DNA of 64,000 nt from Escherichia phage FL04. The notes beneath the pieces were generated by a model. It ran no database searches, was not told the DNA's origin, and saw only the letters and a list, made by a program, of their open reading frames with translations. Shown here in pieces: positions 2,166-52,518 of the stretch (within the stretch, counting starts at the first letter, position 1; each line of letters opens with the position of its first letter). The stretch lies in sequence record PP358550. One strand, 5' to 3'. The translations under genes were made by a program, and so were the position numbers.

Positions 2166-2194
2166 TTGACAGGGGATCGGTGATCCCCTATACT
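2166..2194 (+). promoter_or_regulatory. sigma70-type promoter with GGGGATCGGTGATCCCC palindrome as 17-bp spacer
   Basis: TTGACA 2166-2171, spacer 17, TATACT 2189-2194; two GATC sites in spacer. Confidence 0.6.
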
Positions 2195-2840: not shown

Positions 2841-2869
2841 TTGACATGAAAATGCGGTTATCATATAAT
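2841..2869 (+). promoter_or_regulatory. sigma70-type promoter
   Basis: TTGACA 2841-2846, 17-bp spacer, TATAAT 2864-2869; GCGGT/ACCGC dyad flanks the -10. Confidence 0.55.
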
Positions 2870-2903
2870 GACCGCATCAAATGAACGATGTGAGGATTAT
2901 ATT

Positions 2904-4030: not shown

Positions 4031-4462
4031 ATGGTTTATCCAACTCCTAGTAAGATTTACATTGACGATACTCATTTTCTTGTTGAAATTATGGGTATAA
4101 AGTTTAGTGGTAATGTTAAAATTGTAGAATGGGAATTGCACGGTCAACCTGTAACCGATTATGACCATTACATTCCTTTTTTGGGTGATGACAATTTTGT
4201 CTCGTTTGACCATGAAGGTTACATGATCTTTGAACAGTCTGACGTACCGACCTATCTAGCAATGATGCAAATTCCTACGAAGGTTTCTGTTGCTGAGGGT
4301 GATTGCGATTGTTGCGGTTGGTATACTGTAACAGATATTAAGCTGCCATCCGGTAAAGAACTCTATAACGAAGACCATTTTGGAAACTGCAATTTTCCGT
4401 GTGATTGGGATGAATTTTTCGAACTGGTAGAGATTGAGCGAACTTATTTGAGGAAGGGATAA
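4031..4462 (+). CDS. hypothetical protein
   Basis: GAGGATTATATA-ATG start; Cys cluster CDCCGW. Confidence 0.55.
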   Translation: MVYPTPSKIYIDDTHFLVEIMGIKFSGNVKIVEWELHGQPVTDYDHYIPFLGDDNFVSFDHEGYMIFEQSDVPTYLAMMQIPTKVSVAEGDCDCCGWYTVTDIKLPSGKELYNEDHFGNCNFPCDWDEFFELVEIERTYLRKG

Positions 4463-5274
4463 TGAAGAAAGCATTAGGTTTAATTCCCTATACTGGCAAT
4501 AAGGAAAAGTTATTGCCAAGTGTTAGTAAGTATTTCCCTAAGCACTATAACCGCTTTGTTGATGCCTTTTGTGGCGGCTTGAGCGTGTCTCTGTACGTCG
4601 AAGGGGATGTGCTGGCTAATGACTATGATCACCGCTTAATTGAAGCGTACAAAGCTATTGACGAGTGTCCTGATCCGGTTTTTATGATCAAGCGGATTAT
4701 TGCCGAAAATGGTTTGTCTCGCGAAGATAAAGACGCTTACATGACATTCCGTAAGAAGTATAACGAGAATCCAGATCCGCTATCTCTGTTTGTTCTGATT
4801 CAGCACAGTTTTAGCAACATTAACCGACATAACCGGAAGGGCGAATTTAATGCTAATTTTGGTCGCCGGACTTTTAACGAAAACGCGGTAGAGCGTGTCC
4901 TGAATTTTAAAGAAGAAAACAAAGACGGTCGAATCAGTTTTACGTCTGGTCGTTATGACGAGATCGAGATCTTGCCAGGTGATTTCGTTTATTTGGACCC
5001 GCCGTACCTTATCACTTCTGCGGAATATAATAAGTTCTGGAGTGACGAGGAAGAGATTAAATTCTATCAGTGGGTAGAATCTATTATGGCGCGTGGTTTT
5101 CAGTTTGGTATAAGTAATGTCACGCATCATAAGGGAAAGGCAAATGATCATCTTCTTGACTTTATCAAGCGGAATGATTTAAACTGCGTCTTGTTGAATA
5201 AGACCTATTGCCTAGATCGTTCAGGTGGCAAGTCTTCTGATACGCAAGAAGTTTATGTAACTAACGTAGATTGA
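4462..5274 (+). CDS. dam: DNA adenine (GATC) methyltransferase Dam
   Basis: Translation closely matches T4 Dam (as recalled) end to end, including DPPY catalytic motif and FCGG SAM-binding motif. Confidence 0.9.
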   Translation: MKKALGLIPYTGNKEKLLPSVSKYFPKHYNRFVDAFCGGLSVSLYVEGDVLANDYDHRLIEAYKAIDECPDPVFMIKRIIAENGLSREDKDAYMTFRKKYNENPDPLSLFVLIQHSFSNINRHNRKGEFNANFGRRTFNENAVERVLNFKEENKDGRISFTSGRYDEIEILPGDFVYLDPPYLITSAEYNKFWSDEEEIKFYQWVESIMARGFQFGISNVTHHKGKANDHLLDFIKRNDLNCVLLNKTYCLDRSGGKSSDTQEVYVTNVD

Positions 5275-5282
5275 GGTATAAC

Positions 5283-5564
5283 ATGGTAGAAATTTTTGGT
5301 TTTGAAGGTTACAACTGTAAGTATTGCCAGAATGCAAAGCGCCTTTGTGAATCGCGTAAGATCCCTTACATCTACATTCCGGTTAATGATGGTGTTGACG
5401 AAAACGGTCGCCCTGTAAAGATTGATTCTGTCATTGCCGATATTCAGGATCGAGCAGGGGTAGAAGTTATTGCCACCATGCCGCAGATTTTCTATAATGG
5501 TGATTATATTGGTGGCTTTGATGAGTTCCGATCCTTTGTAGTCAAAAACAAGATTAATGGTTAA
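5283..5564 (+). CDS. nrdC: NrdC-like glutaredoxin/thioredoxin
   Basis: CKYCQNAKRL redox motif and TMPQIF..GGFD match T4 NrdC; sits upstream of gene 49 as in T4. Confidence 0.8.
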   Translation: MVEIFGFEGYNCKYCQNAKRLCESRKIPYIYIPVNDGVDENGRPVKIDSVIADIQDRAGVEVIATMPQIFYNGDYIGGFDEFRSFVVKNKING

Positions 5565-5588
5565 ATACCTTCTTTGGAGGGTGAATTT

Positions 5589-6062
5589 ATGTTACTGACT
5601 GCTAAGAGTGCTAAAGAGTACAAACAAGAACTATTCGAAAAACAGGGGGGCATTTGCCCCCTTTGTCAATTGCCACTTTTTGAGGATATGAGCAAAAACC
5701 ATCTTGACCATGATCATGATCTAGATGGGAAAGGGCAAGGCCGAGTAAGGGGATTGCTTCATTCGTGTTGCAACCGCCTAGAAGGATCGTTGACCGGAGA
5801 CTTTAAACGGTTTGGTGTTGGTGCTTTAGGTGCTGATTTCGTTGTTTGGGCTACAAACTATGTTAATTACATCAAAGGAGACTACACCAACAATCATTTA
5901 CATCCTCAATATGCTGTTGATAAAGTAAAACGATTTTCACGCTTGACACGCGCGGAGATGGTTGCTATTATGGACGCAGAGGGTTTCGATTACTGCGACG
6001 CTGATACACGAGAAGAAATCACGAAGAAGTATAAGAAACAATTCATACAAAGATTAAGATAG
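5589..6062 (+). CDS. 49: endonuclease VII (Holliday junction resolvase)
   Basis: HLDHDHD..G.VRGLLH.CCN motif and overall similarity to T4 gp49. Confidence 0.9.
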   Translation: MLLTAKSAKEYKQELFEKQGGICPLCQLPLFEDMSKNHLDHDHDLDGKGQGRVRGLLHSCCNRLEGSLTGDFKRFGVGALGADFVVWATNYVNYIKGDYTNNHLHPQYAVDKVKRFSRLTRAEMVAIMDAEGFDYCDADTREEITKKYKKQFIQRLR

Positions 6063-6065
6063 TAG

Positions 6066-6094
6066 TTGACAATAAGAAATGGGAGTAGTAAAAT
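6066..6094 (+). promoter_or_regulatory. sigma70-type promoter with GGGAGTA/TACTCCC dyad around -10
   Basis: TTGACA 6066-6071, spacer 17, TAAAAT 6089-6094; palindrome 6081-6100. Confidence 0.6.
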
Positions 6095-6125
6095 ACTCCC
6101 ATCTAATCAAGAAGGAGAATCAACA

Positions 6126-6398
6126 ATGCGTAAGATGTTTAAATCCGGTGTGGCCTATGTTTTTAAATCTGAGCAAGCACATAAAGACTTCTTAGATGAT
6201 GAATACGAAGGGGTGAAAGATACCTACGAAGTCATCAAGAATGGGTTTACTGTTCTTAAAGTGTCACCTGTTGGTTATGTAAGTGAAATAGCGGTTGATG
6301 GGAAAACATACACCGCTAAAGACTTTGACCCGCGTTGGGAATTTATGCTGCTTCCGTGTGAGCGCATTCTGTTCCGTGCTGTTCAATTAGTGAAATGA
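6126..6398 (+). CDS. hypothetical protein, multi-copy ~90-aa domain family (single domain)
   Basis: ATG 6126 after AAGGAGAATCAACA; shares G.YxF.......F...V..GF.VL.V...G.V..I..DG..YT pattern with at least 8 other genes. Confidence 0.6.
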   Translation: MRKMFKSGVAYVFKSEQAHKDFLDDEYEGVKDTYEVIKNGFTVLKVSPVGYVSEIAVDGKTYTAKDFDPRWEFMLLPCERILFRAVQLVK

Positions 6399-6412
6399 TA
6401 GAGGATTATATT

Positions 6413-6973
6413 ATGGTACAGAAAACGTATAAATTGTATCCGGCTAAGTCTTCAAATGATGCTGTTTTTGAACGAGGTCGTTATTACACTTTCCGTAGTG
6501 CAGAAACAGCCGCAGAATTTATCAAACGATGTCCGCAACATAATAAGTTCTTGTATGACGTGCTTTGTAACGGCTTTAAAGTTCTCACTGTTGATGCGAT
6601 GGGGCGTGTGTATCTGGTAGAAACTCATGGGTATGAAGGTGCATCTGTTCTGATTGCTGCAAACGAGCGCAAATACTTTAAACGCATCACTAAAAAGCAG
6701 TTTGAAGAAATGAAACCAGTTAAGAAAGAAGAATCTCTGGAAGATCTGATTAACTTGTTTGGTAAAGTTCGCTCTATCTCCTTTGCGATTGAAGATGACA
6801 TTACCGACAATAAAATCTTTATCAAGAACGCGGAAGACCTGAAAGAGTTCCTTATTGAAAATAGATCTCGACTGGAAACCTTTCTTGAAAGTGAAATTAT
6901 TCGACATGATACCTACGCTAAATTCAGCGCCGAGAAAGTGGAAGAACTGAAAGAGATTAAAAAGTCACTTTAA
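6413..6973 (+). CDS. hypothetical protein, multi-copy domain family (domain plus helical C-terminal tail)
   Basis: GAGGATTATATT-ATG start; contains NERKYFKRI motif. Confidence 0.6.
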   Translation: MVQKTYKLYPAKSSNDAVFERGRYYTFRSAETAAEFIKRCPQHNKFLYDVLCNGFKVLTVDAMGRVYLVETHGYEGASVLIAANERKYFKRITKKQFEEMKPVKKEESLEDLINLFGKVRSISFAIEDDITDNKIFIKNAEDLKEFLIENRSRLETFLESEIIRHDTYAKFSAEKVEELKEIKKSL

Positions 6974-6976
6974 CGC

Positions 6977-7005
6977 TTGACATGATGAAACGGGAGTAGT
7001 AAGAT
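6977..7005 (+). promoter_or_regulatory. sigma70-type promoter with GGGAGTA/TACTCCC dyad
   Basis: TTGACA 6977-6982, spacer 17, TAAGAT 7000-7005; palindrome 6992-7011. Confidence 0.6.
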
Positions 7006-7036
7006 ACTCCCATCTAAACAACGAGAGGATTATATT

Positions 7037-8215
7037 ATGGCTAAATTCTTTGAAGGTCATTACTATGCATTCCGTGAAGGCGGAAAAGATGAGTTTCTAG
7101 ACTTTTCTCGCTATTCAATTATTCTGACCGATGCTTCGCGCCGTGGTCATATTCGGGTTGCTGAAATCGTAGAAAAGGGCTTTAAAGTATTAGAAAAAGA
7201 TGACCACGGTCATGTTATTACTATTGAAGCTGGAGATGTAGTTTATTCCGCTAATGATATTGTTGATTATTGGGCTACTATGATTATGCACAATGAGCGT
7301 AAATACTTTAAACGCATCTCAAAAGAGGCATACGAAGCGATGAACAAGAAAGAGGATGCAATGCCGACTTACTTTGAAAAAGGTAAATGTTATTCGTTTA
7401 CCCCAGAAGGTTTGCAAGAATTTAAGCGATTCTGGGGAGAGCATGATCCAGATCACAAAGAAGCTATGAAACTTGTTGATTTTGTCGAATATGGCTTTTT
7501 AGTTGAAGAAGAATTGCACGGATCAGCTACCATGATCACCGCGAAAGGTGAAACTGTTAAGGCAGATCGTTTTTGTGATCAATGGAATTGCTTGTTTGAC
7601 GGTAGCGAATTTGAATACTTCGCGGAAATCACGAAACAACAATTTCATTCTATGCAAGCGGATGGTCAGAGATTTAAAGTAGGTGAACGCTACAAGCCAA
7701 ATCAGCATAATTTGCCATATTGGTTTACCGCTGAAACTGTATCAAGTCATGTTGTTGAAATTGTTCAAAAGCTGGGACAAGGATTTAAGGTGACTAAAGT
7801 AGATGATTATGGAAGTGTTGACGCGGTTGAAATTGATGGTGTAGAATATACACCGAAATCATTCGGGCTTTGCTGGTATCACCTGATCAGCAATGATGAA
7901 CGTTATAACTTTGTTGAACTGCCATCTGAACCGGAAGAAGCACTAGAAGATCATGATCATCTGTCTGAACTGGTTAAGCTGTTTGGTGATCTGCCGGATG
8001 GTGTAGGCGTGGCGGTAATGGGTGAAGGTGCTGTTATTCGAAACCTGAAAGACTTTAAAAAGTTCTTGATTGACATGCTGCCTAAACTTGATGATAATCT
8101 CGATACAGATATTCAGAATCGCAAAGAAATTGTTAAAGAGACTGAAAAAGAGATTGAAGAGATTCGAGCAATTCGCCAGAAGGTGAAAGCAGTAAAGAAA
8201 AAAGTTAGTGCTTGA
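7037..8215 (+). CDS. hypothetical protein, multi-copy domain family (three tandem domains plus C-terminal tail)
   Basis: 392 aa; internal repeats with HNERKYFKRI / EYFAEITKQQF / ERYNFVEL motifs. Confidence 0.65.
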   Translation: MAKFFEGHYYAFREGGKDEFLDFSRYSIILTDASRRGHIRVAEIVEKGFKVLEKDDHGHVITIEAGDVVYSANDIVDYWATMIMHNERKYFKRISKEAYEAMNKKEDAMPTYFEKGKCYSFTPEGLQEFKRFWGEHDPDHKEAMKLVDFVEYGFLVEEELHGSATMITAKGETVKADRFCDQWNCLFDGSEFEYFAEITKQQFHSMQADGQRFKVGERYKPNQHNLPYWFTAETVSSHVVEIVQKLGQGFKVTKVDDYGSVDAVEIDGVEYTPKSFGLCWYHLISNDERYNFVELPSEPEEALEDHDHLSELVKLFGDLPDGVGVAVMGEGAVIRNLKDFKKFLIDMLPKLDDNLDTDIQNRKEIVKETEKEIEEIRAIRQKVKAVKKKVSA

Positions 8216-8239
8216 CATGCGAAGGGAGTATGCTATAAT
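8212..8239 (+). promoter_or_regulatory. sigma70-type promoter with GGGAGTA/TACTCCC dyad
   Basis: TTGACA 8212-8217, spacer 16, TATAAT 8234-8239; palindrome 8224-8245. Confidence 0.6.
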
Positions 8240-8269
8240 ACTCCCACTTAACAACGAGAGGATTATATT

Positions 8270-8764
8270 ATGTGGGTACAAGATGTTTGGTATACTGTAA
8301 CTAAAGAAAACCTTGACGCATTCAGCGACCAATCTTGCGCTAATAGCTCAATTGCTGGTATACTTACTGATGTGTTTGGTGGTGTAGATAAAATTCGTTT
8401 TAAAGTTGTTGTTAATTCTATGGGGTGTGTAAAAGACCTATACACCGAAGATAAAGACCTTGATCTTGAACTTCGTCTTCGTATTGATAATGCAAGTCTA
8501 GGTTATTGGTTTGAAGATAACGAATATGAATACTTCACACCAGCAATTAAAGTTTTTGCGACTAAACTGGAAGCTGTACTGAATCTCCGACCAATTAATG
8601 TTGACGGTTACATTATCAAAAATATTCAGGATTGGGAGTTGTATCTAGATCAGGTTATCCGAAATAGTAAGCAGGATGCCGCTAATAAGAAGCGACAAGA
8701 GATTAAACAGCTTAAAGCTGAACTAGAAGCTAAAGAAAAAGAATTAGCAGAACTGGTAAAATAA
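8270..8764 (+). CDS. hypothetical protein with C-terminal coiled coil
   Basis: GAGGATTATATT-ATG start; KQLKAELEAKEKELAEL tail. Confidence 0.55.
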   Translation: MWVQDVWYTVTKENLDAFSDQSCANSSIAGILTDVFGGVDKIRFKVVVNSMGCVKDLYTEDKDLDLELRLRIDNASLGYWFEDNEYEYFTPAIKVFATKLEAVLNLRPINVDGYIIKNIQDWELYLDQVIRNSKQDAANKKRQEIKQLKAELEAKEKELAELVK

Positions 8765-8773
8765 CTATCAACG

Positions 8774-8796
8774 AGCGGGAGAAATCCCGCTTTTTC
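8774..8796 (+). terminator. rho-independent terminator
   Basis: GCGGGA-GAAA-TCCCGC hairpin followed by TTTTT. Confidence 0.6.
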
Positions 8797-8808
8797 ATAG
8801 GTGATACA

Positions 8809-10671
8809 ATGGAAAAACTAATCAAAGACATTACAGAGATCGCAACGGGTAAAGAAAACGAAGTGAGCAAAGAGAACGCGAACAAAGACGCGCGAACATT
8901 CCCGACACGTCGAGATCTGATTGCTGGCGCTGTGTCTAAACAGATTGCTAAAACCGTGTTACCTGAGCACATCTATAAAGCGCATGTAGACGGTGATATT
9001 CATTATCATGATATGGATTATGCACCAGCTATGCCGTTTACTAACTGCTGTCTTGTTAATCTCAAAGACATGTTAGAGAATGGTTTTAAATTGGGTAGCG
9101 CACAAATCGAAAGTCCGAAATCAATCGGCGTTGCTTGTGCTGTAACCGCTCAAATTATCGCACAGGTGGCAAGTCATCAATATGGCGGGACCACAATTGC
9201 AAACATCGATCAGGTTTTAGCGCCATACGTTGAGAAAACATATCATAAACACCTTGCTGATGCCGAAACCTACGGAATCAAAGCTGATACTCTCTATGCA
9301 CAAGAGAAGACAGAAAAAGAAACGCTAGACGGGTATCAAGCGTTGGAATATGAAATCAACACTTTGTTCTCCACCAACGGTCAAACGCCTTTTGTGACTT
9401 TAACCTTTGGTATGGGTACTAGCTGGGAAGAAAAACTGATTCAGAAAGCGATCCTGAAAGTTCGAACTAAAGGTTTAGGTAAAGATGGTATAACTCCGGT
9501 GTTTCCTAAGCTGGTGATGTTCTTAGAAGAAGGATTAAACCTTAAACCGGAAGATCCGAACTACGACATTAAGCAACTTGCATTGGAATGTTCTAGTAAG
9601 CGTCTTTACCCTGATTATATCTCTGCGAAGAATAACCGTAGTATCACTGGATCTAGTGTTCCGGTTAGCCCGATGGGTTGTCGTAGCTTCCTGGGTGTGT
9701 GGCATAATGAGAAAGGCGAAGAAGTATTAGACGGACGTAATAACTTAGGTGTTGTGACTCTGAATCTTCCGCGTATTGCCCTTATTGCCGCGCGTCGTGC
9801 TGGTAAAGCGTCTGTAATGCGCAGAATTGAGCTATTCGAACAAGAGCTAGCTAATCGTATGCCTATTTGCTTTGATGCGCTCATGAGTCGCGTAGACGCT
9901 TTAAAAGGGGCTAAAGCCAATGTTGCTCCGGTGCTGTATACAGAAGGTGCATTTTTCCGTATTCATCAAAACGATGAAATTTTGGAAGTGCTGAAAGATG
10001 GTCGCGCTAGTATCTCTCTTGGATATATTGGTTTACATGAGGTATTGAGCGTCCTGTTTGGTGTTCATCCGTTTGATTCGGAAGATGCGCAGCGATACGG
10101 TAAACATATTCTTAAGATCTTGCGTCATTATACTGAAAAATGGAAGGACGAAACCGGACTTGGGTTTAGTCTTTACGGTACGCCAGCCGAGAGCCTTTGC
10201 TATCGATTTAATCGACTGGACCGAGAGCAATTTGGTATTGTTAAGGGTGCTACCGATAAAGACTGGTACACCAACTCATTCCACCTTGACGTAGACCGGA
10301 AAGTCACTCCATTTGAGAAAATCGACTTTGAGAAAGATTATCACTGGCTGGCGTCCGGTGGCATGATCTCTTATGTTGAGTTCCCAGACATGAAAAACAA
10401 CCTGAAAGGTCTTGAAACTGTAGTGGACTATGCAATGGATAAATTGCACTACTTCGGTGTTAATACTCCTTCTGATGTGTGTCATGTATGCGGGTCTACT
10501 AAGGAAATGAGAGCGACCGAGTTTGGTTTTGTTTGTCCTGATTGCGGAAATGATAATCTGGAAAAGATGAATGTTATCCGTCGCGTTAGTGGATATCTTG
10601 GATCTGTTGATCTGCGTCCATTTAACCACGGGAAACATTCCGAGATGGTAAACCGCGTTAAGCACATGTAA
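8809..10671 (+). CDS. nrdD: anaerobic ribonucleoside-triphosphate reductase
   Basis: 620 aa; C-terminal Zn ribbon (CHVCGS...CPDCG) and glycyl-radical motif RVSGYLG. Confidence 0.95.
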   Translation: MEKLIKDITEIATGKENEVSKENANKDARTFPTRRDLIAGAVSKQIAKTVLPEHIYKAHVDGDIHYHDMDYAPAMPFTNCCLVNLKDMLENGFKLGSAQIESPKSIGVACAVTAQIIAQVASHQYGGTTIANIDQVLAPYVEKTYHKHLADAETYGIKADTLYAQEKTEKETLDGYQALEYEINTLFSTNGQTPFVTLTFGMGTSWEEKLIQKAILKVRTKGLGKDGITPVFPKLVMFLEEGLNLKPEDPNYDIKQLALECSSKRLYPDYISAKNNRSITGSSVPVSPMGCRSFLGVWHNEKGEEVLDGRNNLGVVTLNLPRIALIAARRAGKASVMRRIELFEQELANRMPICFDALMSRVDALKGAKANVAPVLYTEGAFFRIHQNDEILEVLKDGRASISLGYIGLHEVLSVLFGVHPFDSEDAQRYGKHILKILRHYTEKWKDETGLGFSLYGTPAESLCYRFNRLDREQFGIVKGATDKDWYTNSFHLDVDRKVTPFEKIDFEKDYHWLASGGMISYVEFPDMKNNLKGLETVVDYAMDKLHYFGVNTPSDVCHVCGSTKEMRATEFGFVCPDCGNDNLEKMNVIRRVSGYLGSVDLRPFNHGKHSEMVNRVKHM

Positions 10672-11863: not shown

Positions 11864-11892
11864 TTGACGGGGATCGCGAGATCCCCTATACT
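11864..11892 (+). promoter_or_regulatory. sigma70-type promoter with GGGGATCGCGAGATCCCC palindrome in spacer
   Basis: TTGACG 11864-11869, spacer 17, TATACT 11887-11892; two GATC sites. Confidence 0.6.
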
Positions 11893-19284: not shown

Positions 19285-19313
19285 TTGACGCGGGGAGAAA
19301 TCCCCGTTATACT
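19285..19313 (+). promoter_or_regulatory. sigma70-type promoter with CGGGGA-GAAA-TCCCCG palindrome in spacer
   Basis: TTGACG 19285-19290, spacer 17, TATACT 19308-19313. Confidence 0.55.
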
Positions 19314-23399: not shown

Positions 23400-24086
23400 A
23401 TGAAACTGACTAAAGAAACCATTGCTACCCTGAAAAACTTTTCCGCTATTAACCCAGGTATCATCCTGAAAAAAGGAAACGTCCTGATCACCAAAAACAT
23501 GACAAACGTTGTATATGGTGAAGCGACTCTGAATCAAGAACTGGAACACGAAATTGGGATCTATGATCTTAACTCTTTCTTGGGTATTCTGAATCTGGTA
23601 GGCGATGAAGCAGATATTACGGTTGATAACCGCACCGGAAACATTCGTGTGTCTAATGATCGTCTGAAAATTAATTATCCTGGTGCTAGTGCTGCCGCTA
23701 TCGTATCACCGAAAGGCCGAGTTACTCCACCTGCAAGCGATGTAGATTACGAACTGAGCAACGACGATCTGAAACAGCTTATGAAAATGAGCAATCAGCT
23801 TAAAGTGGATCGCCTTGAATTTCTTCCGATTGATGGTCGTCTGATGATCAAAGGCTGGGAAGAGATTGACAAAAATAATCCGAATGAGATGTTTTGTCTT
23901 GATATGGGCGAATATACCGGAACCGCAGACTTCCATTTCTTTATTCGTAAAGATAACATGAAACTGGTTGCTACTGACTTCGGAGATTACAAACTGAGCT
24001 TCACTCGCCGTAAGGCTGTATGGCTGGCAAGTGAAACCGTATCTTATATGATCGCGTGTGACCTTGACTCCAGCTACACCGACTAA
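23400..24086 (+). CDS. 45: sliding clamp gp45
   Basis: Translation matches T4 gp45 (MKL.K.T.A.LKNF..IN.GI.LK...). Confidence 0.9.
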   Translation: MKLTKETIATLKNFSAINPGIILKKGNVLITKNMTNVVYGEATLNQELEHEIGIYDLNSFLGILNLVGDEADITVDNRTGNIRVSNDRLKINYPGASAAAIVSPKGRVTPPASDVDYELSNDDLKQLMKMSNQLKVDRLEFLPIDGRLMIKGWEEIDKNNPNEMFCLDMGEYTGTADFHFFIRKDNMKLVATDFGDYKLSFTRRKAVWLASETVSYMIACDLDSSYTD

Positions 24087-24092
24087 TATAAT
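24064..24092 (+). promoter_or_regulatory. sigma70-type promoter for gene 44, within the 3' end of gene 45
   Basis: TTGACT 24064-24069, spacer 17, TATAAT 24087-24092; followed by leader palindrome GGGGAGT-N6-ACTCCCC 24099-24118. Confidence 0.45.
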
Positions 24093-24151
24093 GTTTGTGG
24101 GGAGTGTAAATACTCCCCGTTTTAATGATGTAATTTGTGAGAGGTGATTAT

Positions 24152-42157: not shown

Positions 42158-42185
42158 TTGACATACAAGGGAGATTCTCTATAAT
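42158..42185 (+). promoter_or_regulatory. sigma70-type promoter with dyad GGGAGAtTCtC/GaGTCTCCC around -10
   Basis: TTGACA 42158-42163, spacer 16, TATAAT 42180-42185; palindrome 42169-42196. Confidence 0.55.
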
Positions 42186-42219
42186 GGGAGTCTCCCTTTT
42201 CTTTTATGAGGATTTAATA

Positions 42220-42526: not shown

Positions 42527-42555
42527 TTGACACTGGATCGGGGATATATCATAAT
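42527..42555 (+). promoter_or_regulatory. sigma70-type promoter with GGGGA/TCCCC dyad
   Basis: TTGACA 42527-42532, spacer 17, CATAAT 42550-42555; GATC at 42536-42539. Confidence 0.5.
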
Positions 42556-42585
42556 GTCCCCATCGAAAACAAAAGGTTGACTTAT

Positions 42586-48956: not shown

Positions 48957-49156
48957 TTATGAAAGAATATCCAGAAGGCGGTTATATTGCATTTCTGTAC
49001 AACAATAAAAAGATTGTGCCAATTGTCGTTGAAACACTGGAAGAATCCAACCGGATCACCAGTGAATCTCTGAGCAAATTAGCAGAAATGACAAACACGC
49101 CAGAACACAGAGCAAAGATCGACAGCTTGATGAAAGAATTATCAGAGAGGAAATAA
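48953..49156 (+). CDS. hypothetical protein
   Basis: ORF with ATGA overlap. Confidence 0.5.
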   Translation: MIMKEYPEGGYIAFLYNNKKIVPIVVETLEESNRITSESLSKLAEMTNTPEHRAKIDSLMKELSERK

Positions 49157-49159
49157 ATT

Positions 49160-49555
49160 ATGACTGAACGACGCATCACTTCAAATGGTTTGGGTACTCA
49201 TCATGCATGGATGGTTGACCCAGACAAAAATCCTTATAAACTTTACGATACAACAATTAAACCGTGGAATAATGGTGTGTGGAAAACACCACCCACAACA
49301 GCACCTATTATGACTGATCCGAAACCGATTAGCCCGATGGCGGAACCAGTACAGATCAAGCCGTTACCTTACCAGATAACGACGAATAGCATCACCAACA
49401 AACAAGAAAATGATATTGATATGATCTACGAGATGATTAAACTTTGGCGTGATGTTTATCTGGGTGTTCTATGCAACACAGATAAAAGTGCACATGCGGC
49501 AGCGGTGCTGGCATCTCATGCAGTAGACGAAGCCAAAAAGAAATTTAGTAAGTAA
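49160..49555 (+). CDS. hypothetical protein
   Basis: ORF. Confidence 0.5.
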   Translation: MTERRITSNGLGTHHAWMVDPDKNPYKLYDTTIKPWNNGVWKTPPTTAPIMTDPKPISPMAEPVQIKPLPYQITTNSITNKQENDIDMIYEMIKLWRDVYLGVLCNTDKSAHAAAVLASHAVDEAKKKFSK

Positions 49556-49564
49556 CTGACTATT

Positions 49565-49596
49565 AAGCCGATCCTTGTGGTCGGCTTTTTTATTTG
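49565..49596 (+). terminator. rho-independent terminator
   Basis: AAGCCGATCC-TTG-TGGTCGGCTT hairpin plus TTTTTTATTT. Confidence 0.7.
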
Positions 49597-49605
49597 AAAA
49601 GTTGT

Positions 49606-49634
49606 TTGACTTCCATAATCCAGCATTGCATAAT
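49606..49634 (+). promoter_or_regulatory. sigma70-type promoter
   Basis: TTGACT 49606-49611, spacer 17, CATAAT 49629-49634. Confidence 0.5.
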
Positions 49635-49665
49635 ACACACAGTGAAACAAAAAGGAGATTCAAAA

Positions 49666-49872
49666 ATGAAAGTACGTTGCATTGAAACCGATCACATCAA
49701 TTATAGCTTTGGTGTCGGGTGTGATTATGATGTTGATGTATTCACGGACAATAGCGGAAACACATTTGATGTAGTTCATGGTGACTATATTTGGTTTTAC
49801 TTTGACAAACAACAACTTACTGCAACCAAACGAAACGGTGATCCGGTAGCAAAATTTGAAATAATCGAATAA
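49666..49872 (+). CDS. hypothetical protein
   Basis: ATG 49666 after AAAGGAGATTCAAAA. Confidence 0.5.
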   Translation: MKVRCIETDHINYSFGVGCDYDVDVFTDNSGNTFDVVHGDYIWFYFDKQQLTATKRNGDPVAKFEIIE

Positions 49873-49878
49873 AATCTA

Positions 49879-49907
49879 TTGACACTGAATAATGGGAGTA
49901 GTAATAT
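49879..49907 (+). promoter_or_regulatory. sigma70-type promoter with GGGAGTA/TACTCCC dyad
   Basis: TTGACA 49879-49884, spacer 17, TAATAT 49902-49907; palindrome 49894-49913. Confidence 0.6.
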
Positions 49908-49938
49908 ACTCCCATTCCAAACAAAAGGAGAATCAAAG

Positions 49939-50211
49939 ATGAGCAACGAAAACAGCAAAGTGTTAGCAATTGCAAATAAAGTAGGTTACTGGAAATGCTG
50001 GGATGATATGGAGAAATTAGGCGGTCGCTATCTCGATAACTTAGAGTTGCATTATTGCCAAGCGCGTAATGCAGAAGTTGCTGGAGTAGCAATTGAAGAT
50101 ATCCCGTCTAAGGTCTTCGGATTCTCTAAAGATGATACTCTAGAATATGTTTTCAAGGCTGTTATGGATCAAGCATGGGAAGACGCAGAGACACGCGCTC
50201 TTGATTGGTGA
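49939..50211 (+). CDS. hypothetical protein
   Basis: ATG 49939 after AAAGGAGAATCAAAG. Confidence 0.5.
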   Translation: MSNENSKVLAIANKVGYWKCWDDMEKLGGRYLDNLELHYCQARNAEVAGVAIEDIPSKVFGFSKDDTLEYVFKAVMDQAWEDAETRALDW

Positions 50212-50215
50212 TAAT

Positions 50216-50386
50216 ATGAACTGGTATAAAATTTGGAAAAATCAGGTGGAGGCTTATCTAGGGTATAAGCCCACCGACAAAGAATTACTTGATGCAATGT
50301 ATGAAGACGGACTAAATCCGAAAGTAGCCGCGCAAGAATACGCGGAATGGGTGAAGGTCGAAGATAACCTAAAGAGGAAACTATGA
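50216..50386 (+). CDS. hypothetical small protein
   Basis: ATG 50216; track ORF 50147 overlaps upstream gene. Confidence 0.4.
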   Translation: MNWYKIWKNQVEAYLGYKPTDKELLDAMYEDGLNPKVAAQEYAEWVKVEDNLKRKL

Positions 50387-50607
50387 AGAAAATGATTGCG
50401 ATTGCTTTGTTGGCGAGCGCATGTACTGTAAATGCTAACACCGCAGCGATGGTCGCGGCTGTAACTGCCGCAAATGCTTCCGTTATGGCATCGCAAGAGG
50501 CAGCACGCCAGCAAGCACAACAAGAAGCCAAGCGAAAAGCACATGAGGCGACGAAAAATTTTCACGAAAATAACAAAAAACTAGTTGACGCCAAAGGTCA
50601 TCGGTAG
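50383..50607 (+). CDS. small secreted protein, probable lipoprotein
   Basis: N-terminal signal peptide MKKMIAIALLASAC with lipobox-like ASAC, then Ala/Gln-rich mature part. Confidence 0.5.
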   Translation: MKKMIAIALLASACTVNANTAAMVAAVTAANASVMASQEAARQQAQQEAKRKAHEATKNFHENNKKLVDAKGHR

Positions 50608-50613
50608 TATTAT
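50585..50613 (+). promoter_or_regulatory. sigma70-type promoter with degenerate dyad
   Basis: TTGACG 50585-50590, spacer 17, TATTAT 50608-50613; right arm TACTCCC 50613-50619. Confidence 0.5.
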
Positions 50614-50647
50614 ACTCCCATACCGAAACGAACTGGAGGAAATAAAA

Positions 50648-50890
50648 ATGGTTAAAGTGAATGTTATCGAAGTTGCACTGTACGACGCTGGGATCTTCCT
50701 GAATGAAAAAGAAGCTGCCGTGCTCGATGAACTGAAAACTGTTTTTGTTCCTGTAGTCGAAGACGATGAAGCAATCAAAATCGCTTCTCGTAAACTGTCC
50801 CGCGAAGCATTCGACATGATTGATCCGGTTTTCAAAGTTATGCACGAATGCGCGGTTATGATGACCGAAGAAGAAGCGAAAAATTTCTAA
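50648..50890 (+). CDS. hypothetical acidic protein
   Basis: ATG 50648 after GGAGGAAATAAAA. Confidence 0.5.
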   Translation: MVKVNVIEVALYDAGIFLNEKEAAVLDELKTVFVPVVEDDEAIKIASRKLSREAFDMIDPVFKVMHECAVMMTEEEAKNF

Positions 50891-50897
50891 AAACTAG

Positions 50898-50926
50898 TTG
50901 ACGTAAAGATAAGGGAGTAGTAATAT
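50898..50926 (+). promoter_or_regulatory. sigma70-type promoter with GGGAGTA/TACTCCC dyad
   Basis: TTGACG 50898-50903, spacer 17, TAATAT 50921-50926; palindrome 50913-50932. Confidence 0.6.
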
Positions 50927-50955
50927 ACTCCCATACCAAACGAAAGGAGAATCAC

Positions 50956-51168
50956 ATGAAATCTATTGAGCAAGTAGTGACTGAATTTATGAGCTACGAA
51001 GGAAACCGCATCTTTGGACGTTCTCAAGTTCGCGAGATCGTAGAAGAAGTTGCGGGAGAGTTTGCGGAATCTGGTCACGTTATCACGCAAGAACGTAAAG
51101 AAGAAGCAGTAAGCCAGATCATGGCTATGCAGAAAATGCGTATTAATGCACGAGCGGGTAAAAATTAA
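50956..51168 (+). CDS. hypothetical protein
   Basis: AAAGGAGAATCAC-ATG. Confidence 0.5.
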   Translation: MKSIEQVVTEFMSYEGNRIFGRSQVREIVEEVAGEFAESGHVITQERKEEAVSQIMAMQKMRINARAGKN

Positions 51169-51178
51169 AAAATAGTTG

Positions 51179-51207
51179 TTGACAGGGGATCGCCGATCCC
51201 CTATAAT
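51179..51207 (+). promoter_or_regulatory. sigma70-type promoter with GGGGATCGCCGATCCCC palindrome as spacer
   Basis: TTGACA 51179-51184, spacer 17, TATAAT 51202-51207; two GATC sites. Confidence 0.6.
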
Positions 51208-51238
51208 GAACTCATCAAGACAACGAAGGAGAATCAAA

Positions 51239-51394
51239 ATGAAACATACTCACAAATTAATGGTTAAATTTGAAGGCGCTAAGGGATATGAACGTTACGG
51301 TGTATTCTTCTCTGAGGATGATGCATGGGATGCTGGTTTGGCGACGTTCGCCGAGCACAACAACATTGAAGACTTTACTGTAGAAGAAATTTAA
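51239..51394 (+). CDS. hypothetical small protein
   Basis: ATG 51239 after AAGGAGAATCAAA; track ORF start 51176 runs through promoter. Confidence 0.45.
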   Translation: MKHTHKLMVKFEGAKGYERYGVFFSEDDAWDAGLATFAEHNNIEDFTVEEI

Positions 51395-51401
51395 AAAGTA
51401 T

Positions 51402-51430
51402 TTGACATCGGATTAAGGGAGTAGTAAGAT
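51402..51430 (+). promoter_or_regulatory. sigma70-type promoter with GGGAGTA/TACTCCC dyad
   Basis: TTGACA 51402-51407, spacer 17, TAAGAT 51425-51430; palindrome 51417-51436. Confidence 0.6.
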
Positions 51431-51464
51431 ACTCCCATCAAGACAAAACACTGAGGAATATATT

Positions 51465-52211
51465 ATGAAAAACATTATCGCTGCTATCGTTCTTTCTGCT
51501 ACTGCTTTCGGTGCTAACGCTGCGTCCTTTGATTGCGCTAAAGCTACTACCAAATCAGAGAAGTTTATTTGTGCTAATGAGTCTATCTCCGCACTGGACT
51601 CTAAACTTCATGAGGTGTATGTTAAGGCTGTTAAGATTGATCCGTCTCTGAAACAAGAGCAACGAAACTGGAATAAAACTGTTCGTGATACAATGATCAA
51701 TATCGGGCAGATTCAGCCACTGGAGGCTGTATATAACGCTCAAATCCAAAACTTGATGAATGTATTACCTAAAGAAGAAAGCGATTCAGAGACTTCTGCG
51801 AAGGTTGAAGAAGAACAACCGAAACAGGAAGCAAAAGTGGTAGAAGAACCGAAGGTCGAAACTTTTACCTATCAATGCACCGTTCGTTATGAGTGGAGTA
51901 TGAAAGATGGAATTTCCACAAAAATTAAAGAGGCTCCACTGTATGCAAAATATGGAAACCAGCCAGGGGATCTTAAAGTAACCATTAAAAATGGGAAGAT
52001 GGTTGATTTTGTATACATTGATGAATACAACGTACACAAAGCAAACGTACAAGAAACCGTTATGACTAAAGGCGGGTTTTATAAGAATGTTGGCAAGAAA
52101 GATCTATATGAATACTCCGTTTTCGAACCAAACGACGGAACTATTCGATTTGAAAAACGTCATCCTACATTCGGTGGCGCAATTGATGTAGATCAATACG
52201 TTTGCAAGTAA
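51465..52211 (+). CDS. secreted (periplasmic) protein with possible LprI/DUF1311-like N-terminal domain
   Basis: Signal peptide MKNIIAAIVLSATAFGANA; then C..A.T..E.FIC...S...LD..L..VY pattern; GAGGAATATATT-ATG. Confidence 0.6.
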   Translation: MKNIIAAIVLSATAFGANAASFDCAKATTKSEKFICANESISALDSKLHEVYVKAVKIDPSLKQEQRNWNKTVRDTMINIGQIQPLEAVYNAQIQNLMNVLPKEESDSETSAKVEEEQPKQEAKVVEEPKVETFTYQCTVRYEWSMKDGISTKIKEAPLYAKYGNQPGDLKVTIKNGKMVDFVYIDEYNVHKANVQETVMTKGGFYKNVGKKDLYEYSVFEPNDGTIRFEKRHPTFGGAIDVDQYVCK

Positions 52212-52222
52212 GAGGTTAAATT

Positions 52223-52495
52223 ATGCAATTCAATAACATGAAGATTACAAAAGATTGGTGGAAGGCGATGCAAGATACTCCAGAAACCAAATTAAGCGAG
52301 ACAACAACCACAATACAAGTTGATTACGAAGATCCGAAAGACATATACAGAGAGCTTATAAAAGCTGGAAACTATCAAACACCAGATGGCCTTATTGACA
52401 TGATGGTTAAAGGTCTGTATAGTGGTAAAAATCCAGATATTTTACCGTGGTACGAGGGATATTTTAAAACATATCGTGACCACAACCGAAAATAA
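52223..52495 (+). CDS. hypothetical protein
   Basis: ORF after GAGG RBS. Confidence 0.45.
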   Translation: MQFNNMKITKDWWKAMQDTPETKLSETTTTIQVDYEDPKDIYRELIKAGNYQTPDGLIDMMVKGLYSGKNPDILPWYEGYFKTYRDHNRK

Positions 52496-52518
52496 TTTGT
52501 TGACGTGAGGATTATATT

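Follow-up and report, generated by a model that had tools for sequence, protein, structure and literature searches.

What is the role of the inverted repeat GGGAGTA-N6-TACTCCC that is wrapped around the -10 hexamer of several early promoters in Escherichia phage FL04 (PP358550)? A sequence-only reading of the window, which here means the whole 64,000-nucleotide stretch analyzed, had proposed an operator for a dimeric DNA-binding regulator or, alternatively, an RNA hairpin formed in transcripts that read through from upstream promoters. Our analysis favors the hairpin. The palindromic sites are, by their sequence, promoter-early stem-loop (PeSL) cassettes, an already known family, and belong to the subclass in which the stem overlaps the -10. 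PeSL identity, an early promoter for the host RNA polymerase (RNAP), a hairpin in read-through RNA and a patch for recombination can be combined in one explanation, to which we give a probability of about 0.7.

The GGGAGTA sites and their setting

The window is, judged by its relatives, a Krischvirus (RB49-like) genome. Its segments 5500-9500 and 49000-52500 match 58 records in a phage collection, all of them Krischvirus at 90-98% identity and including RB49, phi1, JSE, GEC-3S and kvi; no match to either segment was found outside Krischvirus in that collection. The window shares 96-98% identity with Krischvirus genomes. The window is oriented antiparallel to the RB49 reference and is equivalent to approximately 145-164 kb plus 1-45 kb of RB49. 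In the GEC-3S record, the homologs of the 6066 and 8212 sites are already annotated as promoters with identical -35 and -10 boxes.

The perfect dyad occurs five times in the window, compared to a chance expectation of 0.07, and none of 100 dinucleotide-preserving shuffles reached five. The heptamer GGGAGTA alone is found 16 times, with 3.6 expected. A sixth copy, GGGAGTA-N8-TACTCCC, is better seen as an 8-bp stem with a 6-nt loop. The six promoters with a common -35, dyad and -10 architecture that the sequence-only reading had listed are thus all present, and so is the half-degenerate copy, which retains the right arm only. The sites are as follows.

6066-6100, plus strand: PeSL promoter; -35 TTGACA at 6066-6071, -10 TAAAAT at 6089-6094, predicted +1 at 6101
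6081-6100, extendable to 6079-6102, plus strand: hairpin GGGAGTA/TACTCCC of the 6066 site, predicted energy -13.8 kcal/mol
6126-6398: ORF downstream of the 6066 site, a goF-like small paralog
6977-7011, plus strand: PeSL promoter; hairpin at 6992-7011, -10 TAAGAT; 5' of ORF 7037-8215 (frd.2/goF-like)
8212-8245, plus strand: PeSL promoter with a 16-bp spacer; stem GGGAGTAT/ATACTCCC at 8224-8245, -10 TATAAT; 5' of ORF 8270-8764
49879-49913, plus strand: PeSL promoter; hairpin at 49894-49913 with a stem of up to 10 bp, -10 TAATAT; 5' of ORF 49939-50211
50585-50619, plus strand: half copy with the right arm only (TATTAT ACTCCC); no left arm and no predicted stem
50898-50932, plus strand: PeSL promoter with -35 TTGACG; hairpin at 50913-50932, -10 TAATAT; 5' of ORF 50956-51168
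51402-51436, plus strand: PeSL promoter; hairpin at 51417-51436, -10 TAAGAT; 5' of ORF 51465-52211 (LprI-like, with a signal peptide)

The -35 hexamer of all copies is TTGACA or TTGACG, and the spacer to the -10 measures 17 bp except at 8212, where it is 16 bp. A consensus scan identified the -10 hexamers as TAAAAT, TAAGAT, TAATAT or TATAAT. The stems are 7-10 bp long and the 6-nt loop carries the -10, which occupies the loop plus the initial base or bases of the right arm. The final C of the right arm is the predicted -1 and is followed by a conserved A, so that the element ends, as had been noted earlier, about 1 bp before the transcription start. Predicted RNA hairpins have energies of -11.9 to -14.5 kcal/mol and are retained when folded in a 116-nt context.

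The upstream ORF stops 3-7 nt 5' of the -35, and the hairpin begins 11-22 nt past that stop codon. The stop codon of gene 49, for example, ends at 6062, just before the 6066 promoter, and at 8212 the stop TGA (8213-8215) lies within the -35 hexamer. The 30 nt upstream of the copies are 75% A+T. A GGAG or GAGG Shine-Dalgarno (SD) sequence is located 13-25 nt 3' of the stem and the ATG is positioned 59-63 nt from the start of the -35. The genes that follow encode goF-like paralogs, members of families of unknown function and one LprI-like protein; Pfam and PHROG searches detected no DNA-binding regulator among these downstream genes. The description of the sites as early sigma70-type promoters serving small early genes was correct.

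The published PeSL family

Arbiol et al. 2010 (PMC2839356) described about 100 PeSLs, 51 in RB49 and 52 in phi1. Each consists of an upstream stop codon in an AT-rich tract, a sigma70-consensus promoter with its -35 and -10 boxes 16-18 bp apart, a stable G...C-rich stem-loop, an SD sequence and a start codon. Five subclasses are distinguished by the position of the stem, which most commonly lies between the -35 and -10 or overlaps the -10, and G-T pairs were reported within the stems. PeSLs are found mostly in hyperplastic regions, 5' of small ORFs of unknown function. The stem-loop was proposed to terminate or attenuate transcription arriving from upstream, and the conserved cassette of about 100 bp was proposed to be a recombination substrate that inserts, deletes and circularizes the flanked ORFs; the crossovers of the resulting mini-circles were mapped between the -10 and the ATG (PMC2839356). 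The PeSL concept was later extended to further T4-like phages by Comeau et al. 2014 (PMC4122927).

All six GGGAGTA copies display the sequence-level features of a PeSL: promoter spacing, AT-rich 5' tract, stem, SD and ATG, genome type and association with indels. The PeSLs of RB49 and phi1 are like the window sites in genus, anatomy, stem position, G-T pairs, small-gene context and the location of indel ends, and no essential difference separates the two sets. A search of related phages for the dyad, which had been suggested along with the operator, finds nearly the same arms in two RB49 elements. PeSL193/192 has the promoter TTGAAA-N17-TAAGAT and the arms GGGAGTG...TACTCCC, reading GGGAGTG...TAAGATACTCCC, and PeSL205/204 reads TGGAGTAGTAAGATACTCCC. 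The near identity of these arms places those of FL04 in the published family. The GGGAGTA sequence is not printed in the main text of PMC2839356, which emphasizes GGGG...CCCC stems. The present finding confirms the PeSL architecture in another Krischvirus genome.

The PeSL promoters of the window are host-RNAP early promoters. Cloned PeSLs were so strong that most of the clones recovered were -35 or -10 mutants; about 13,000 Miller units were measured for one wild-type clone (PMC2839356). A PeSL stem-loop lowered lacZ expression as strongly as rrnB T1 (PMC2839356). The RB49 intergenic sequences show that PeSL206/205, which gave the ~13,000 Miller units in the promoter assay, and PeSL211/210, the sole stem-loop tested as a terminator, both belong to the GGGGATC-N3/4-GATCCCC subclass. 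The terminator activity of the 211/210 stem was measured with a lacZ reporter (PMC2839356), and an assay of that kind cannot separate termination from RNA decay. Of the GGGAGTA subclass, 193/192 was cloned for promoter measurement and only mutant clones were recovered (PMC2839356). Our literature searches found no Krischvirus transcriptome and no study of transcription start sites or 3' ends.

Early promoters elsewhere in the window carry other stems in the same place, a stem between the -35 and -10, or no stem. The GGGAGTA arms are consequently not universal to early promoters. The two related dyads that had been noticed at 24099-24118 and 42169-42196 both exist, the latter as part of a 13-bp stem. 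The principal elements with other stems are listed below.

2166-2194, plus strand: PeSL of the other common subclass, with the stem GGGGATC-N3-GATCCCC between the -35 and -10
2841-2877, plus strand: PeSL in which another stem covers the -10, ATGCGGTTAT/ATGACCGCAT at 2852-2877, one U·G pair
24099-24118, plus strand: related hairpin in the gene 44 leader, GGGGAGTGTAAATACTCCCC, that is, GGGGAGTG-TAAA-TACTCCCC
42158-42207, plus strand: PeSL in which the stem is another one, a hairpin of 13 bp at 42167-42198, AAGGGAGATTCTC/GGGAGTCTCCCTT, with TATAAT in the loop and followed by TTTTCTTTT
42527-42561, plus strand: PeSL in which another stem covers the -10, GGGGATAT/ATGTCCCC at 42540-42561, one U·G pair

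Further copies of GGGGATC-N3-GATCCCC are positioned at 11864-11892 and 51179-51207, and a CGGGGA/TCCCCG stem at 19285-19313. The gene 44 hairpin lies just 3' of the promoter TTGACT-17-TATAAT (24064-24092), so that the early transcript of gene 44 has it at its 5' end.

Elements of a similar kind flank the internal-protein (IP) loci of T-even phages. According to Arbiol et al., who cite Repoila et al. 1994, these also combine an early promoter with a stem-loop and border hypervariable small genes. Their promoters, however, are of the T4 early type and their stems are weaker and AT-rich, and the two kinds of element have been termed analogs, not homologs.

Sequence and pairing in the stems

The arms had been considered far more conserved than a promoter needs. 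Identity across the five in-register copies is 100% in the arms and 93% in the -35 hexamers, but only 39% in the 9-nt spacer between the -35 and the left arm and 38% in the 30 nt upstream. To this extent the claim stands. It does not extend to the CCC at -3 to -1. Nolan et al. 2006 found that RB49 early promoters prefer C at these positions, in agreement with mapped 5' ends, and part of the right-arm conservation is therefore at the level of the promoter. Hairpin-less promoters in Krischvirus genomes have the discriminators ACACAC or ACACCC, followed by AT.

Perfectly conserved arms beside a freely drifting spacer could also be the mark of an operator, that is, of a duplex dyad to which a dimeric protein of the phage or the host binds and, by covering the -10, represses or times the early regulon. 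The dyad spans -20 to -1, which is an ideal position for a repressor. It resembles the LexA- and lambda-cI-type operators in being centered on the -10 and in ending at the start site. The promoters of RB49-type phages are known to fall into two classes only, early and late, so that a mechanism for early shut-off would be needed. A DNA-binding protein recognizing the stem motif was also a speculation of Arbiol et al. (PMC2839356). An operator should, however, present a fixed half-site with uncompensated changes, and the collected stems give a different picture.

Stems were gathered from the window, RB49, GEC-3S, kaaroe, LF73P4, UPWr_E1, FL37, a second RB49 assembly, SAP and three IMG/VR contigs. 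This set contains at least 13 distinct 7-bp stems at the -10-overlapping register. Pair tables computed in Python show that pairing in the 13 stems is 99%, compared to 43-65% when the partner is slid. One compensatory series leads from GGGAGTA/TACTCCC through GGGGGTA/TACTCCC, which has a G·T intermediate, to GGGGGTA/TACCCCC. A second compensatory series consists of GGAGTAT/ATACTCC, GGTGTAT/ATACACC and GGGATAT/ATATCCC. Between orthologs, pairing is also retained: an A-T pair has changed to T·G at the 6066 site of GEC-3S and at the 8212 site of contig L056, and a G·T pair to A-T at the 24099 site of FL37. A T·G pair is replaced by T-A at the 2841 site of the relative L045 and in an RB49 paralog of the 42527 site. 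Single genomes hold many such stems in one place with both arms changing together, and a single protein would not track such changes. In this respect PeSLs are unlike the LexA- and cI-type operators, because their arm sequence varies within one genome and the changes are compensated. Furthermore, the same discriminator is present in promoters that have no hairpin, and the half copy at 50585 as well as the variants GGGGGTA and TGGAGTA persist in orthologs.

Wobble pairs were tallied by a rule symmetric for G·T and A·C, in which at least six of the seven pairs had to be Watson-Crick and the seventh could be any pair. Read on the sense strand, G·T accounts for five of the single non-Watson-Crick pairs and transversions for two, and A·C is absent; the 13-bp stem at 42167 contributes two further U·G pairs. 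A G·T pair on the sense strand is A·C on the opposite strand, so that the bias suggests that it is the sense strand that folds, in the simplest case as RNA. The events are few, and four of the G·T events are the identical change, A to G at promoter position -6, so that selection at the level of the promoter could underlie the bias. A homodimer half-site predicts neither the compensation nor the restriction of transition-type mismatches to sense-strand G·T.

Taken with the diversity of the stems, these tests favor a stem that is conserved as a folded single strand, not as a fixed-sequence operator. The operator is unsupported by the sequence and appears improbable. The compensatory changes and the sense-strand wobble bias add modest comparative evidence to what has been published, in favor of a folded single strand over a duplex. 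Tolerance of G·T fits a hairpin of sense-strand DNA equally well as one of RNA. Arms that are 100% identical next to a 39% identical spacer nevertheless exceed what pairing alone would impose, and a protein ligand or an additional sequence-specific constraint on the GGGAGTA arms is possible.

The dyad might also have no function of its own and merely hitch-hike on one successful promoter variant, its uniformity being due to recent duplication or gene conversion and to promoter constraints only. The motif is limited to one genus, and the preference for C at -3 to -1 belongs to the promoter. The 6066, 6977 and 8212 copies precede tandem goF-like paralogs, which is consistent with duplication of a gene together with its promoter. 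Yet the flanks of the arms have diverged to near-random identity (0.38-0.39) and the arms are still at 1.0. Independent stems of other sequence also stay paired in the same place, with their changes compensated. A dyad devoid of separate function is thus quite unlikely.

Read-through RNA and exchange of cassettes

Each site is a compact cassette between genes, organized in the order stop codon, AT-rich tract, consensus sigma70 -35, spacer and a G+C-rich stem of 7-8 bp with the -10 in its loop; directly past the stem come the predicted transcription start, a short A-rich leader, a GGAG-type ribosome-binding site and the start codon. Initiation is predicted at the base right after the right arm, so that the cassette's own mRNA would be made without the hairpin, and both arms would be present only in RNA that comes from upstream promoters. 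In such RNA the hairpin would probably act on read-through, by attenuation or pausing, or else shield the upstream message at its 3' end. In this way every small early gene would be transcribed as a separate, insulated unit. The hairpin in read-through transcripts that the sequence-only reading had offered as its second option is close to the published proposal and is the best-supported reading of the dyad. Rfam covariance models gave zero matches at gathering thresholds across the whole window.

Like a Rho-independent terminator, the element would be a G+C-rich hairpin in the nascent sense RNA soon after a stop codon. Unlike one, it is nested in a promoter and hence is missing from that promoter's own transcript. 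An intrinsic terminator also has a U-rich tract after its hairpin, and the six GGGAGTA copies have none, with 1-3 T in the 9 nt after the stem. They are not canonical intrinsic terminators, and efficient termination by this subclass is doubtful. Most likely, to judge from the sequence, the GGGAGTA hairpin attenuates read-through or stabilizes the upstream 3' end. This commonest of the -10-overlapping subclasses is hereby recorded as being without a U-tract, and its terminator role is putative.

Two other -10-overlapping PeSLs do have full U-tracts. The first is the hairpin at 42167-42198, with a predicted energy of -21.3 kcal/mol and two U·G pairs. With the tract that follows it, the 42158-42207 element has the predicted shape of a canonical intrinsic terminator built around a -10. 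The second is an element of the RB49 hyperplastic region, ACGGGGACTAGT..ACTAGCCCCGT-TTTC, whose tail is TTTTCTGTT. A terminator nested in a promoter in this manner would stop the read-through RNA and leave unaffected the promoter's own RNA, which would start inside or after the right arm.

The hairpin had also been put forward as a candidate processing site, at which RegB (recognizing GGAG) or another RNase would cut the read-through RNA and separate the cistrons. GGAG is indeed contained in the left arm, and RB49 encodes a (divergent) regB. RegB cuts GG*AG in early intergenic regions, its strong sites being GG*AGRAYARAA, and secondary structure protects GGAG. The left-arm GGAG is paired, which makes its cleavage by RegB unlikely, and GGAG-UAG misfits the RegB consensus. 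The downstream SD leaders, GGAGAATCAA(A/C), fit that consensus much better and are the more plausible targets. RNase III needs a stem longer than 7 bp. Processing within the stem, as this part of the earlier proposal had it, is highly improbable.

A further component of the preferred explanation is recombination. Comparison of the 49.0-52.5 kb region with sister phages reveals four indels or replacements between 49.6 and 51.4 kb. Nucleotides 49670-49906 are missing from kaaroe, FL37, RB49-OZ and SAP, 50373-50880 from UPWr_E1 and SAP, and 51190-51387 from LF73P4; 51158-51388 is replaced in kaaroe and FL37. The ends of all four fall in PeSLs. The 49879 PeSL borders the cassette missing from four sister phages and the 51402 PeSL that missing from LF73P4. 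In four phages there is a chimeric PeSL, composed of the -35 to -10 of the 49606 promoter and the leader of the 49879 promoter. Its junction lies between the -10 and SD, where Arbiol et al. mapped the mini-circle crossovers (PMC2839356). The roughly 70-100 bp of shared cassette sequence may serve as a patch of homology, at which recombination inserts, deletes and exchanges the flanked genes.

The palindrome itself could instead be the substrate, either as a hairpin or cruciform or as a fold of single-stranded DNA during replication or recombination. Endonuclease VII, gp46/47 or another factor would target it, and these nucleases or recombination proteins would drive the shuffling of cassettes. 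Arbiol et al. raised this idea (PMC2839356). The coincidence of indel ends with PeSLs and the formation of mini-circles between PeSLs (PMC2839356) agree with it, and G·T is the best-tolerated mismatch in DNA hairpins too. However, the mapped crossovers are between the -10 and ATG, away from the stem, and hairpin-less PeSLs, such as that at 49606, join the same exchanges. Ordinary homologous recombination across the conserved cassette suffices to explain them. Arms of 7 bp with a 6-nt spacer are, moreover, short for cruciform extrusion. A function of the dyad as DNA structure is accordingly unlikely, and a homology patch within the PeSL cassette is preferred.

PeSLs are among the better documented examples of accessory-gene movement in large lytic phages. 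A promoter and an insulator accompany each small gene as it moves, and the same conserved cassette is also where recombination takes place. Arbiol et al. made the comparison to integron gene cassettes and lambdoid 'morons', which are also accessory genes carrying their own expression signals, with conserved and partly structured boundaries at the points of exchange. Unlike integron cassettes, PeSLs have no known integrase or attC-type site-specific recombination, and their exchange seems to proceed by general homologous recombination.

The GGGAGTA stem accounts for 36 of the 62 stem instances collected, a redundant set drawn from genomes that are 90-98% identical. A search of 2.9 million IMG/VR contigs with a specific pattern found the promoter form of the dyad in only three, all Krischvirus-like. 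A generic scan of IMG/VR for the dyad gave at least 120 matches, and nearly all of those listed are unrelated hairpins without promoter context. Confinement of the variant to Krischvirus-like contigs fits the proposal that one GGGAGTA cassette variant has spread through the genus and been homogenized there. In addition, the right arm, with ACTCCC at -6 to -1, is probably constrained as a promoter discriminator, and the left arm would be held complementary to it. Duplication of genes together with their promoters apparently contributed, because three of the copies stand before the tandem goF-like paralogs.

A more speculative proposal is that GGGAGTA-(G)TAANA-TACTCCC is, as duplex or hairpin, the specific target of a Krischvirus protein that shuts off a subset of early promoters or initiates cassette excision and mini-circles. 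If true, it would explain why 36 of the 62 stems keep the exact sequence while the spacer drifts, and early-promoter shut-off would matter in phages without a middle-promoter class. We regard it as a long shot. The results open no new question; they sharpen the one left by Arbiol et al., namely the role of the stem and its recognition by a protein.

The loop was also considered as a late promoter for gp55. This was rejected, since GTAANATA and the late consensus TATAAATA agree in no more than about 5 of 8 positions. In the RB49 record, the loop region of the gene 44 leader hairpin corresponds to a site annotated as '-10 of a hypothetical late promoter'.

Exchange of gene cassettes and apparent duplication of a gene with its promoter

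When FL04 is compared with its sister Krischvirus genomes, entire cassettes of small genes are seen to be present, missing or substituted, and the breakpoints of the variable cassettes fall within promoter cassettes. In kaaroe, FL37, RB49-OZ and SAP one promoter is chimeric, with the -35 and -10 of the promoter at 49606 joined to the leader of that at 49879.

Variable cassettes, and a gene with a variable 3' part
49670-49906, variable cassette
50373-50880, variable cassette
51158-51388, variable cassette
51190-51387, variable cassette
51465-52211, gene for a 248-aa protein, under the 51402 promoter

The 248-aa protein has a signal-peptide-like N-terminus and a putative LprI (lysozyme inhibitor) domain, the match to Pfam PF07007 (E = 4.9e-5) being slightly above the family cut-off. 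In UPWr_E1 another sequence takes the place of the C-terminal part. The promoter at 50585-50619 sits within the 3' end of the preceding ORF, the stop of which is at 50607.

Three adjoining genes at 6126-8215 encode proteins of 90, 192 and 392 aa that are paralogues of one another and have in common the goF/frd.2-like PHROG families 8944, 622 and 5347. A promoter with the GGGAGTA/TACTCCC hairpin over its -10 precedes two of the three (the genes at 6126 and 7037); the 90-aa gene and the 192-aa gene, at 6395, are both served by the promoter at 6066. From its sequence, the cluster looks like a tandem duplication of a gene together with its promoter. The promoter that follows has the TGA stop of the 392-aa ORF (8213-8215) within its -35 hexamer, TTGACA (8212-8217).

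Other hairpins at promoters

Hairpins of other types
2171-2189, 11869-11886 and 51184-51202, GGGGATC-N3/4-GATCCCC stem between -35 and -10
24064-24118, early promoter of gene 44, with the hairpin GGGGAGTG-TAAA-TACTCCCC right at the 5' end of its transcript
42158-42207, consensus promoter TTGACA-16-TATAAT with a 13-bp hairpin

Besides GGGAGTA, the other common stem of promoter-early stem-loop cassettes (PeSLs) is the GGGGATC type, which also occurs in many PeSLs of the hyperplastic region of RB49. Each such stem places two GATC (Dam) sites within the promoter spacer. A Dam methylase gene is present in the phage itself (ORF 4462-5274, RB49 dam).

The loop of the 13-bp hairpin at 42158-42207 is exactly the -10, and TTTTCTTTT follows. 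Judged by sequence, this element is a promoter enclosed in the canonical shape of an intrinsic terminator. Because the predicted start lies within the right arm, only read-through RNA would be terminated.

The RB49 record annotates a hypothetical late promoter whose -10 is the heptamer GTAAATA. The gene 44 leader hairpin surrounds this heptamer, so that a dyad is also found around a late-type -10. In FL37 the closing pair of this hairpin is A-T instead of G·T.

Leaders and the antisense strand

Conserved leader GGAGAATCAA(A/C) downstream of PeSLs
6113-6123
49926-49936
50941-50951

This leader is similar to the T4 consensus for strong RegB/S1 cleavage, GG*AGRAYARAA, a likeness which suggests that RegB targets the early mRNAs carrying it at the Shine-Dalgarno sequence.

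The sense-strand spacer 5' of the left arm (GGGAGTA) is A-rich, both in the copy with its hairpin at 6077-6104 and in the other GGGAGTA copies, so that on the antisense strand a T-rich tail (7, 5, 5, 5, 3 and 3 T of 9 across the copies) comes after the same hairpin. The hairpin could act as a stop for antisense transcription; 6104-6077 on the minus strand was flagged by the terminator scan.
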